Shown one piece after another: positions 38,737 to 41,700 of a DNA stretch of 64,000 nucleotides. Within the stretch, counting starts at the first letter, position 1. The number at the start of each line of letters is the position of its first letter. The DNA is from Candidatus Hydrogenedentota bacterium (GTDB lineage Bacteria > Hydrogenedentota > Hydrogenedentia > Hydrogenedentales > SLHB01): contig BTVY01000035.1 of the NCBI GenBank assembly GCA_045863335.1, positions 13,279 to 77,278 on the forward strand, in the 5' to 3' direction. The notes beneath the pieces were generated by a model. It saw only the letters and a list, made by a program, of their open reading frames with translations, searched no databases and was not told where the DNA came from. Made by a program: the position numbers and the translations under genes.

Positions 38737-41700
38737 ATGTCAGATGATCGACCGGATAACCCGGAACAGACGTTCCCCACGCGCGACACTGATCCGCTCA
38801 TCGGTCAGGACGAATTGGACCGCGCCATCGCTGCGGCGCGCGAGGCTGCTCGAAAACACCGCGCTGAGATCAGATCACCCGAACCTGCTGACATGCAGGA
38901 AGTGGTATCTCCCCCCACGATTTCAGAGCCGCTGCCGCCGGACCGAGGAATTCTCAACCAGGAGGAATTGAACGACGCCATTCGGCGGCATAGTCACGCA
39001 CAATCGGCCGCCGCTACGCCTCCAGCGGCGATCGACCTGGAGACGCAGGAACTGGATGCGGCTGGGGTGATCGACCCCCCGGAAGCGGTGGGCCAGGATG
39101 AGATCGATCGGATGCTCGCGGCCATCGGCAACAGCGAGCTTCTGGGCGGGGCACAGGATACGCGCGAACCCGCGGGTGTGGATCGATTCGATTCGGCAAC
39201 TGGCGAAGCGCCGGATGTGCCCGCCGATCGTGGCAGAACCATGGTCACCCAGGACGAGTTGGACCGCGCGCTCGCGGCGAGTCGGGATGCCGTTGCAGAA
39301 GCGCGCGCCGAAGCCCAATCCGTCCCGAAGGAACCGGCAAGGTTCGCAACCGCGCCACCGCCCGAAGTTCCAGCGAGGCCGCTTCCGGCCGACCTTGGCC
39401 CGATCAGTCAGGTGGAGCTGGATCACGCAGTCGCCGCGCACGACAAAAGCAAAACTCCCGTGGTGGATTCCACCCCCAAGCTGAAGGAAGACGGGACGGC
39501 GGAAACTAATTCCGTGACCCAGGACGAAAGCGACCGAATACTTCGCGCAGCACAGGAGCAGGAACCCCTGGAATCGCCGGTGGACTCGTCCGGAGTGGGG
39601 TCCATTAGTCAGGCGGAGATTGACGAGGTACTCAAGGCCGACGCCGGGAATGAGGTTGAGGTTGCTCCGCCGGAAAACGGACCCGACGACTTCGGTCAAG
39701 TGGATCAGGACGCGATTGACCGGCTGATTCGGCAGGCGACCGGCGAGGTCACCGCGAAACACGAAGCGCAATCTCCGCCGTTGAAGCCGGCGCAGGAGAC
39801 CGGGCCGGACGAATCGCCGCAAGAGCCCCAGAAGCCCGCGGATTCCCATGAGGATGTGCCGGCAACGGAGAATCGCGCGGAAGCGGTAGAGCCGGATCGA
39901 GAATCCGAAGCCGGAAGCGCAGACAAAGGCACGTTGGGACAGGACGACATCGACAGTCTCCTGGCTGCGATGTCCGGCTCCGCTCCGGCCGTGAAAGGGC
40001 CTGCCGAAGAGGATGAGCCGCCGGTCGACGAATCGGTGGAACTCGATGCCGGCACTTCTCCGGCGCCGGAGGTGGAGGCCGAAGACGAGGAGCAACTCGG
40101 GCAGGCGGAGCTTGATGAACTGCTCGCGGCCTTCTCAACCGAAGATACGCTCGTGAATCAGGGCCTGGACGATCGCCTTACCGAAAGCGATGCTGCCGAT
40201 ACTGGCGACATGGATGCGGAGGCCGCGCCGCCGCCCGAGCCGCTCGATGAGACGGCTGTGGAAGCGGAACCGGACGTCGAGGATCCGGTCGCCCGGGCAG
40301 AGCGCGGCGCGGCGGAGTCGCAGGTGGGATCGGAGAACCTGGCGGCTGCAGTCCCGGAAGCGGACGATTTGATCGAGTCCATTATCGGTGGCACGGGAGC
40401 AAAAGCCGCACCAAGTGTTTCCGAAAAGCAGGATGACGCGGTTGACCTCGCGATCCCGTCCACCGAAGAACTTGACGCGACTATCGCAGAGGGCGCGCCT
40501 GTTGCGCCATCAAGCCGTGACGACATGGTGGTGCAACTCGGCGACGAAGAACTGAACGAGGTTGACGTACAGTCCCGCGGCCCGGAGACGGGCGACTACG
40601 AAGCTACGCCGCCGCGGAAGGATTTCCGCCGATCGATTCTGAAAGACCTTCGCTCACGGTTGGGCAAGGGCGCCGATTCGGGGTCGCTCAAAACGTGGAG
40701 TTCCCTTGCCGCGGGAATTCTGTGCGCCATAGGAACCTTCCTGTTTCTCCAGGCAAACCAGCACCGGTTGCCCGACCTGAGCCTCTTGCCTGCGGAGCAG
40801 TACAGCGATCTCTCCGCGGTGTTACGCAACGCCCGGCAGTTGATCGACATGGAGGAGTATCAGGAAGCGGAATCGTTGCTCGAGCCGATCGTGAAGAGCC
40901 GCGCGCCAAGTCCGCAACTTGCCGAGCTTCAGTATCTCTACATCGAGGCGCAGTACCGCCAGTTGCCCACCCACATCACGGATCGCGAGGCGGAGTCGAT
41001 GCACCGCGCCATTGACGAACTCATCGCCCTGGCGCCAACGTTCCAGGGCAACCCGGACCTGTTGCGCTGGAAGGCGGGGCTCTACGAGCGGAGCGGCGCC
41101 TTGGCCGCGGCGCTCAGCACCTACCGCGGTCTCATGACCGAATACCTCGATCAGCAACGCGGCGACGAGACGCTGATCCGCGCCGCACGGCTCGCCGGCG
41201 AGATGAAGCGCCCTGAAGAATCTCAGGAGTTTCTGGTGCGGCTGCTGCAACGCTTCCCAGCGTCAGCCTACGCGCCGGAAGCGAAGCTCCTGCTGGGCGA
41301 TGCGCAGCGCGACGCCGGCAAGGTGGAGGATGCGCGAAAACTGTACACGCAGGTGGCGCTGAGTCAGGACTTCAGCCCGGTCGGCGCGGAAGCCACGGCC
41401 CGGCTCGCGCAACTGGAGATCGATCAGGGCCAGCATGCGCAAGCCATCGAGGGTCTCGAACGGCGGCTGGAAACCGCAACGACGGTCGAAGGAAACGATG
41501 CCATCTATCTCTTGCTGGCGAAGGCATACCGGGCAAGTGGCGATCCGGCAAAGGCCGAAACCATTCTGCGCGAACTCATCAGTTTTTTCCCGGAGTCGCC
41601 CCATACCGCGGAAGCGTTCGTCGAACTGAGCCAAACACTGGACGACATCGGCAATCGCCGCGAAGCGTTGCGGATCGCGTCGCATGCCTCGCAACGGTTT

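Follow-up and report, generated by a model that had tools for sequence, protein, structure and literature searches.

Within a 64,000-nucleotide stretch of DNA from a Candidatus Hydrogenedentota bacterium (contig BTVY01000035.1, positions 13,279 to 77,278; called the window below), one gene encodes a membrane-anchored tetratricopeptide repeat (TPR) protein, referred to as the target, the acidic N-terminal tail of which contains ten copies of the peptide h-x-Q-[DE]-[DE]-[IL]-D-x-h-h, where h denotes a hydrophobic residue. The assignment of this repeated motif to the 'EIDAL' type, which is found at the N-terminus of the flagellar switch protein FliM (FliM-N), is well supported by sequence comparison. 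The target belongs to a phylum-wide Hydrogenedentota family, the link of which to the flagellum is likewise well supported, and it heads a conserved operon that also encodes a small helical protein, a PAS histidine kinase and a sigma54-dependent response regulator.

Building on this established anatomy, motif kinship, and phyletic and operon linkage, the following explanation is proposed for the protein's location, its ligands and its role as a tether or sink. The target would be a flagellum-associated, single-pass inner-membrane protein specific to the Hydrogenedentota, situated at or near the flagellar base, whose disordered tail bears a multivalent array that may recruit proteins recognizing EIDAL-type motifs. 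The main candidate client is phosphorylated CheY, which the array would tether or buffer locally at the membrane; where chemotaxis is absent, the few remaining motifs could plausibly have FlhG as a second client. The target is probably also tied to the program of flagellar assembly and regulation, because its operon directly precedes flgB-flgC-fliE-fliF in a minority of lineages. Taken as a whole, this explanation is given a slightly better than even chance of being correct.

The motif array, its kinship with FliM and its setting

The ten copies are those listed in the original prediction, which was made by reading the window's sequence; all of them are present. Their Q residues are at positions 49, 100, 145, 197, 250, 287, 317, 349, 427 and 481 of P0001, which is numbered from the start of the open reading frame (ORF) at 38662..42771. 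Against a 13-column log-odds matrix (the repeat matrix), which was built from 281 unique instances in orthologues and has the consensus [LM]-[SDT]-Q-[DS]-[DE]-[IL]-D-[AR]-L-[IL]-A, they score between 12.4 and 25.5 bits. Within the N-terminal tails of 100 orthologues this matrix finds 474 matches of at least 10 bits, as opposed to 0.4 (the mean of five shuffles) in shuffled sequences. Likewise, a strict regular expression matches the target ORF eight times, while among the 40,839 six-frame ORFs of the genome 19 others contain a single match and none contains more. The array is not explained by chance. Moreover, Tandem Repeats Finder reports no DNA-level tandem repeat in the array DNA (0 rows), which argues that the copies are old and have been maintained at the peptide level; in a seven-sequence alignment, the mean majority fraction is 0.77 in motif columns versus 0.54 in linker columns. 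The number of motifs per orthologue ranges from 0 to 25. (Statistics on motif counts are based on 84 untruncated orthologues, the other 16 of the 100 having N-termini cut by contig ends.) Two additional 'degenerate' copies that had been proposed, at residues 566-576 and 625-635, do not hold up, since both fall below 4 bits on the repeat matrix; the former lies just downstream of a conserved VGSENLAAA block, at a site where several orthologues have, as judged by eye, a full motif.

The genome's own FliM, the N-terminus of which is MADILSQDEVDLLLSAV (G000:C27:34288-35400, L001), scores 20.5 bits on the same matrix, and across 16 genomes of the phylum the FliM N-termini reach 15.8-21.4 bits, a range shared with true array members, which bears out the kinship originally suggested. 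When all 6.8 million peptide windows within the six-frame ORFs of the genome were scanned, 32 reached 12 bits, ten of them in the target, and FliM-N ranked second among those outside of it. The window ranking first (21.9 bits) lies in an inter-domain linker of an FHA-GGDEF protein (G000:C38:31737-32762, minus strand) and was set aside as probably due to chance. Excerpts of PMC6946799 state that the EIDAL motif binds CheY and, for FliM, FliN and FliY, mention motifs that are single, full or degenerate; the peptide is given as LSQAEIDALL or LSQxEIDALL in two papers. The same motif is identified as the FlhG-binding site of FliM in excerpts of PMC12826062 and of bioRxiv 10.1101/2022.04.21.489128, which report that in Shewanella putrefaciens it is both necessary and sufficient for FlhG binding and that FlhG acts via the FliM N-terminus. 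No published description of tandem arrays of such motifs was found in the main text of open-access papers and preprints, in line with the original prediction, which knew of no described example. Hence it is the multivalent, membrane-anchored form that appears to be new; the peptide and the classes of its clients were already known.

Counted from an in-frame GTG at 38662, the plus-strand ORF comprises 1369 codons; the start is probably the ATG at 38737, however, judging from database homologues and from a conserved N-terminus, M-[AS]-D-[DE]-x-P, which is kept in homologues from that ATG onward, and the GTG is an unlikely start. (Two homologues, from metagenome-assembled genomes (MAGs) of Candidatus Hydrogenedentes, bear the source name 'tetratricopeptide repeat protein' alone.) The overall anatomy agrees with what had been read from the sequence: the tail, of 656 residues, is acidic and proline-rich (23% D+E, 9.6% P, net charge -99), and it is followed by one transmembrane helix and a long TPR array. 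The C-terminal domain, of about 670 residues, matches many TPR families in Pfam and was modeled by AlphaFold2, with high confidence (Table 1), from 71 aligned sequences; this alignment (A7) consists of a random pick of 70 of the 94 usable C-terminal domains and the window's own sequence.

This plan is constant over 100 orthologous loci, which have a tail of 87-1031 residues (the shortest, from 87 residues, being cut by contig ends), one transmembrane helix, and some 690 residues of TPR domain; in an initial set of 60 loci the helix marks the same boundary without exception, and it was located in 100 of 100. Net charge is higher in the 20 residues before the helix than in the 20 after it in 94 of the 100 orthologues (median +3 versus -1), and the target's N-terminus is hydrophilic, with no segment resembling a signal peptide. 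Because of this charge bias and of the signal-less N-terminus, the positive-inside rule predicts, with good support, a cytoplasmic tail and a periplasmic TPR domain, so that the repeats would lie, as had been supposed, on the cytoplasmic side.

A second conserved block within the tail centers on (V/I)-G-S-E-N-(L/V)-A-A-A, which sits 57-148 residues ahead of the transmembrane helix in orthologous loci (L006-L138). The core xSENLAA occurs in 42 of the 84 untruncated orthologues versus none of 122 array proteins of other families, and the block could be a candidate contact for the operon's PAS kinase. A search of the ESM Atlas with the tail gave best scores of 0.76-0.79, below a meaningful level, and was not used.

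Linkage to the flagellum and a conserved operon

A profile of the target family matches 102 of 135 Hydrogenedentota genomes, and Pfam FliM matches 107. Both are present in 100 genomes and neither in 26, leaving nine discordant genomes--that is, two with the target alone (G098 and G126) and seven with FliM alone--in keeping with the flagellar co-occurrence that the original prediction implied. The two are jointly absent from 21 of the 23 genomes of one family (f3) and jointly present in the remaining two; joint absence recurs in 2 of 10 genomes of family f8, in one of the two of f13, and in G134, which is 100% complete. As the genomes are not independent of one another and incomplete MAGs are numerous among them, it is this repeated joint absence, and not a P value, that carries the argument for a flagellar link.

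Further evidence comes from gene order. Among 60 loci, an ORF of 136-162 codons begins between -7 and +29 nucleotides from the target's stop in 54, and a homologue of the PAS kinase is encoded 428-906 nucleotides downstream of the target, on the same strand, in 59; the sigma54-dependent regulator comes next after the kinase wherever the locus DNA extends far enough. In 9 of the 35 loci with at least 3.7 kb of downstream sequence, flgB-flgC-fliE-fliF directly follow the operon on the same strand. These nine include loci of f14 and f15, the only families listed whose relationship to the window's genome is no closer than the phylum, so this arrangement may be old. In the window's genome flgB-flgC-fliE-fliF are on another contig (G000:C24:83684-86407), where TGGCACAGGGGTTGCT, which corresponds to the sigma54 promoter consensus, is found 27 nucleotides upstream of flgB. 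The operon with its sigma54 two-component system had not been remarked upon in the original prediction.

In model searches, the regulator scores best with AtoC (516 bits) and also matches FlbD (403.6 bits) and FlgR (341 bits), all of which are below their cut-offs (750 for FlgR and FlbD); the kinase scores 94.8 bits with the FlgS model (cut-off 600). The small protein is modeled confidently as a three-helix bundle (predicted local distance difference test score, pLDDT, 89.6) from an alignment of 43 of the 54 ORFs, close duplicates and one locus (L029) having been dropped. It was considered as a possible FlgN chaperone and rejected: its score with Pfam FlgN is 17.8 bits (cut-off 30.5); at E<=0.01, FlgN is matched by 7 of its 43 orthologues and FliT by one; a fold search against the PDB gave no match at E<=0.001, with FliT at rank 22 and FlgN at rank 35; and a true FlgN (68.5 bits) is encoded elsewhere in the genome.

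Upstream of the target are genes for a neutral ceramidase-like protein (36156-37547, minus strand) and a TetR regulator (37714-38430, plus strand), a neighborhood common to only a few close relatives among the loci examined. Unrelated to the array, the window also encodes, at 47774-51607 on the minus strand, a 1277-residue GH116-family glycosidase with an N-terminus like a twin-arginine signal.

Table 1. Coordinates, within the window, of the target, its parts and the genes that follow it; bits are scores on the repeat matrix
Feature	Position	Strand	Remarks
Target gene	38737..42771	+	1344 aa: acidic tail with motif array, one transmembrane helix, TPR solenoid
Motif 1 LIGQDELDRAIAA	38797..38835	+	24.2 bits
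Motif 2 ILNQEELNDAIRR	38950..38988	+	15.6 bits
Motif 3 AVGQDEIDRMLAA	39085..39123	+	23.6 bits
Motif 4 MVTQDELDRALAA	39241..39279	+	21.5 bits
Motif 5 PISQVELDHAVAA	39400..39438	+	17.6 bits
Motif 6 SVTQDESDRILRA	39511..39549	+	12.4 bits, lowest of the ten; I/L replaced by S
Motif 7 SISQAEIDEVLKA	39601..39639	+	18.5 bits
Motif 8 QVDQDAIDRLIRQ	39697..39735	+	23.5 bits
Motif 9 TLGQDDIDSLLAA	39931..39969	+	25.5 bits, closest to FliM of the ten
Motif 10 QLGQAELDELLAA	40093..40131	+	21.4 bits
Second conserved cytoplasmic block	40282..40386	+	contains VGSENLAAAVP and a degenerate copy, EADDLIESII
Basic juxtamembrane stretch	40615..40668	+	positive-inside signal
Single transmembrane helix	40696..40752	+	P0001 679-697
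TPR solenoid, predicted periplasmic	40765..42768	+	35 helices, mean pLDDT 92.2
Small protein gene	42778..43218	+	146-aa three-helix protein, weak FlgN/FliT likeness, close spacing to target
PAS histidine kinase gene	43226..44386	+	soluble; Pfam matches include no membrane-domain family
Sigma54-dependent response regulator gene	44389..45741	+	receiver, AAA+ and Fis helix-turn-helix domains

Candidate clients and competing explanations

The flagellar and CheY genes that a CheY-related role presupposes are present in the window's genome: it encodes FliM and, consecutively, flhA-flhF-flhG; a chemotaxis cluster with CheA, CheW, CheC/X-like, CheD, CheR and CheB genes (identified by eye); and two single-domain, CheY-like receivers, for which CheY is among the best NCBIfam matches, although it falls short of the cut-off. 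At the N-terminus of the genome's FlhG is a stretch that we take to be of the DQAxxLR type. Across the 135 genomes, CheW was found in 82, a close orthologue of one receiver (CheY1) in 75, and an FlhG orthologue in 109; across families, FlhG is distributed in the way that FliM is. The CheW and CheY1 counts thus indicate that many flagellated members are without chemotaxis genes. About 27 genomes (a count from two lists) have FliM but no CheW, several of these being 95-97% complete. Five such flagellates (95-97% complete) are also without any signaling domain of methyl-accepting chemotaxis proteins (MCPs).

This variation permits array size to be compared with chemotaxis. Independent contrasts were taken as pairs of genomes with (Che+) and without (Che-) chemotaxis genes that are joined by non-overlapping paths on a FastTree phylogeny of the target's C-terminal domain (98 rows, two of the 100 orthologues with short C-terminal domains being left out); the strict contrast leaves out genomes having one of CheW and CheY1 but not the other. 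Of 15 such pairs, 11 have the larger number of motifs in the Che+ member and two in the Che- member, while two are tied (one-sided sign test, p=0.011); when Che status is defined by CheY1 alone, 18 pairs split 14/3/1 (p=0.006). A comparison of raw Che+ and Che- motif counts, which ignores relatedness, yields a Mann-Whitney p of 0.005, and the contrasts are relied on instead. Longer arrays thus tend to go with the presence of chemotaxis, as in 11 of the 13 informative contrasts.

Arrays of this kind also occur on proteins of other phyla. A 30-column profile of 148 repeat units, searched against 1.84 billion cluster representatives, matches 620 of them at E<=0.001, of which 230 pass E<=1e-10; in most, 5-27 stretches are matched. 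Among the best 148, 26 have the target's TPR domain and 122 do not. After masking of the arrays and clustering of the remaining sequence, the largest other group (32 representatives) consists of an array, a transmembrane helix and a FliL-like domain; 19 join an array and a transmembrane helix to some 200 residues of TPR-like domain; 10 have an N-terminal domain of unknown type followed by an array; and the remainder fall into smaller groups. Pfam domains recognized in array proteins are FliL (6 of 67), CheZ (3 of 67), FliMN_C (3 of 50), and FliM, CheC and CheX (1 of 50 each). Organism names, which were available for 3 of 20 proteins, point to MAGs of Desulfobacterales, Thermodesulfobacteriota and Lentisphaerae, the proteins all being annotated 'hypothetical protein', a label that two more carry by itself; a scan with a DNA pattern adds array loci from Planctomycetota, Desulfobulbia and MAGs labeled Bacteroidota. 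(A Sulfitobacter locus from that scan, L155, has a different repeat and was set aside.) FliL-like array proteins from Desulfobacterota-type MAGs have 8-18 N-terminal, cytoplasmic copies (P0018, P0023, P0026, P0030 and 28 further; L157 and L158), and in L157 the gene adjoins a FliK-like gene. A Planctomycetota family (L162:781-2886, plus strand, and L163:3493-5538, minus strand; P0035, P0036 and P0039) combines a FliM-like extreme N-terminus (MAD...SQDDIDAL) with 8-11 more copies, one transmembrane helix and a domain, about 200 residues long, that is TPR-like. Relatives of P0030 were sought in genome contigs and those of P0035 in metagenome contigs; none was found.

A locus from a MAG labeled Bacteroidota (L156:3172-4605, minus strand) is the most informative with regard to clients. 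The protein encoded there has a Pfam CheZ match that covers the catalytic region (34.1 bits against a cut-off of 30.7), and its C-terminal end is formed by ten copies of the motif; the gene adjoins genes for a single-domain, CheY-like receiver, flgE and flgD. The C-terminal peptide of CheZ is a tether for phosphorylated CheY, and because of this the locus points to CheY as a client; it comes closest to direct evidence that arrays of EIDAL-type motifs may serve CheY binding.

Phosphorylated CheY is thus most likely the client of the target's array, yet various observations weigh against an explanation built around it. Its binding is predicted, and the location at the motor is deduced solely from co-occurrence and gene order. 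Many of the window's copies read D-R-x-[LI], as opposed to D-L-L-L in the FliM of the phylum. The contrasts rest on a tree of the target gene itself, Che status derives from MAGs by a search scoring only 33 candidates per genome, and in the closest contrast it is the Che- member that has more motifs (11 versus 9). Arrays persist, moreover, in four genomes without CheW, a CheY1 orthologue or an MCP signaling domain, namely G066 (11 motifs), G036 (7), G098 (4) and G063 (4), all 95-97% complete. Conversely, 9 of the 84 untruncated orthologues have no motif of at least 10 bits and keep the operon, so the array is dispensable for the core role of the family. FliM-N itself, as MADILSQ[DE]E[VI]D[LM]LL, is kept in 13 of 13 flagellates examined that have neither CheW nor a CheY1 orthologue (FliM loci L139-L154; five of the 13 genomes were checked for MCPs, and none was found), from which it follows that the motif has a CheY-independent partner in this phylum. 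In Planctomycetota the array gene is followed by a gene for an STN-TPR protein, with no flagellar gene seen nearby. Finally, a strict sigma54 pattern is present ahead of flgB in just two of the nine linked loci and ahead of the target in none of 75, and the claim of a common regulon is accordingly made weakly. Of the original suggestion of a tether or sink for CheY, the FliM-like motif, the cytoplasmic tail, the flagellar link and the tracking of chemotaxis stand; the persistence of both arrays and FliM-N without che genes speaks against an exclusive role in binding CheY.

The published FliM interaction makes FlhG a plausible and, indeed, the obvious candidate for the CheY-independent partner, and it is a plausible second ligand of the target because arrays persist in some flagellates without chemotaxis genes. 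One might go further and suppose that the array binds this MinD-like ATPase instead of CheY, at the membrane or the pole, and thereby sets flagellar number, placement and sigma54-dependent expression, as an analogue of HubP/FimV. Such a landmark would account for the arrays of 4-11 motifs and the FliM-N peptides retained in Che- flagellates, and for the co-distribution of FlhG with FliM; its plan of anchor, transmembrane helix and acidic repeats is reminiscent of HubP. FlhG is, in addition, reported to regulate sigma54 activators in excerpts of PMC12826062, and the target's operon contains one. FlhG alone does not explain the contrasts, however, because it is present in essentially all flagellated members whereas array size follows the chemotaxis genes, and the ten-motif CheZ protein points instead to CheY; an exclusively FlhG-binding array is accordingly regarded as unlikely.

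Rather improbable as a complete account, the target might instead be a membrane co-sensor, the periplasmic TPR domain of which senses the state of the envelope or of flagellar assembly and the tail of which binds the PAS kinase or the receiver of the regulator, gating rod and hook genes. The near-invariant operon, a kinase with no membrane-domain family among its Pfam matches, the regulator's sub-cut-off resemblance to FlbD and FlgR, and the rod genes that come next in a quarter or so of the extended loci, with the sigma54 consensus before the genome's own flgB, are all consistent with this, and, as the FliM-N motif binds the receiver surface of CheY, binding of another receiver is conceivable. 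Nevertheless, the number of motifs varies from none to 25 with the operon constant, so whatever is essential to the coupling cannot be the array; the size of the array tracks chemotaxis genes; and the regulator is closest to AtoC, so that the case for its flagellar role depends on how genes are ordered at a minority of loci. The co-sensor role is compatible with the recruitment explanation for the parts of the protein other than the array.

The idea that the target is simply an envelope TPR protein of the YbgF/CpoB or BamD kind, with an acidic, low-complexity spacer whose repeats have no client and with an incidental link to flagella, is disfavored and considered highly improbable. It draws on a score of 94.1 bits with TIGR02795 (tol-pal YbgF; cut-off 90.1), on weak matches to BamD, PilW and LapB models, on Foldseek and PDB profile matches to generic TPR proteins, and on the uninformative source name. 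The YbgF score is summed over four stretches of a 119-position model, however, as any long TPR array would give; and the co-occurrence and co-absence with FliM, the operon and its linkage to flgB, the conservation of motif columns over divergent linkers, and the same arrays on FliL-like, CheZ and FliN proteins all speak against it.

Significance and likeness to known systems

The contact between CheY and the FliM peptide is the textbook last step of chemotaxis, in which each switch subunit is taken to contribute a single peptide. If the recruitment explanation is true, then a membrane protein with ten such peptides (and up to 25 in relatives) would add a means of buffering or concentrating the signal locally, next to the motor, or else of recruiting FlhG, the regulator of flagellar number. 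For the Hydrogenedentota this provides a first functional handle on flagellar regulation and defines an operon of TPR protein, small protein, PAS kinase and sigma54 regulator. Because arrays also occur on FliL-like, CheZ and FliN proteins, in 620 clusters, the idea could reach well beyond one candidate phylum. A broader proposal, which is offered tentatively and with somewhat less than even confidence, is that tandem FliM-N/CheZ-C arrays constitute a widespread, undescribed module: a multivalent trap for phosphorylated CheY (and possibly FlhG) on motor proteins of several phyla, carried by a TPR scaffold in Hydrogenedentota, by FliL-like proteins in Desulfobacterota, and by CheZ and FliN elsewhere. 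The length of the array would set the local concentration or lifetime of the switching signal and would be tuned, through expansion and decay, with the gain and loss of chemotaxis; in Hydrogenedentota the module would be wired to a sigma54-dependent checkpoint on the rod genes.

As judged from its residues, the motif is of the FliM-N/CheZ-C class, with multiple internal copies in place of the single terminal one that defines that class. It shares the residue pattern of the FliM/FliY peptide (LSQxEIDALL) and, like it, is predicted to be cytoplasmic; but in FliM and FliY, which are C-ring proteins, it occurs once, at the very N-terminus, whereas the target has ten internal copies (0-25 in orthologues) and is membrane-anchored. 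Pfam finds no FliM, SpoA or FliMN_C domain in the target, and FliM has A or L where many target copies carry R. With the C-terminal peptide of CheZ the motif shares the character of a short, acidic, amphipathic, client-tethering peptide; unlike CheZ, the target has no CheZ domain in Pfam searches and no phosphatase active site was found in it, so that it would bind without dephosphorylating.

The original prediction had also likened the topology to that of motor scaffolds such as PflB. The periplasmic TPR superhelix stands: PflA and PflB of the Campylobacter and Helicobacter motor similarly have long periplasmic TPR superhelices in flagellum-linked proteins, and excerpts of PMC12222027 describe them as TPR arrays that scaffold stators, with suggested YbgF-like origins. 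Homology to PflA or PflB is at most tentative, and the target is not assigned to them, the fold and profile searches having given generic TPR likeness only: neither protein is among the best 60 PDB profile matches of the TPR domain, and with Foldseek the relevant structure (9hmf, chain K) ranks fourth with a template modeling score of 0.26-0.29 and a root-mean-square deviation of 21.6, like unrelated eukaryotic TPR proteins. Nor do the excerpts of PMC12222027 describe a long, motif-bearing cytoplasmic tail. YbgF/CpoB is a periplasmic protein of about 260 residues from the tol-pal cluster, whereas the target has 1344 residues and is neighbored by a kinase and a regulator in place of tol-pal genes.

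The polar landmarks HubP and FimV cross the membrane once, are anchored in the periplasm and extend a long, acidic region rich in repeats into the cytoplasm. According to excerpts of PMC12826062, they recruit flagellar and chemotaxis clients, including FlhG. The target likewise has a long, acidic, repeat-bearing region that is predicted to be cytoplasmic, but in reverse order (N-terminus cytoplasmic, C-terminus periplasmic), with TPRs in place of LysM, for which there is no Pfam match in the target, and with repeats of the EIDAL type; the FimV_Cterm model gives 26.4 bits (cut-off 30.65) over 23 residues of a TPR.

In polar flagellates, fleS-fleR or flrB-flrC are located ahead of fliE-fliF, and the order of the target operon followed by flgB-flgC-fliE-fliF resembles this by analogy. 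The operon's soluble kinase and sigma54-dependent regulator, which in the linked loci are encoded directly upstream of flgB-flgC-fliE-fliF, may form a pair of the FlgS-FlgR, FleS-FleR or FlrB-FlrC kind. The undescribed FliL-array class, named examples of which are from Desulfobacterales and Thermodesulfobacteriota, has the same overall plan: it shares with the target a cytoplasmic array of EIDAL-type motifs, one transmembrane helix and a periplasmic domain, which is FliL-like and about 150 residues long in that class versus a TPR solenoid in the target.

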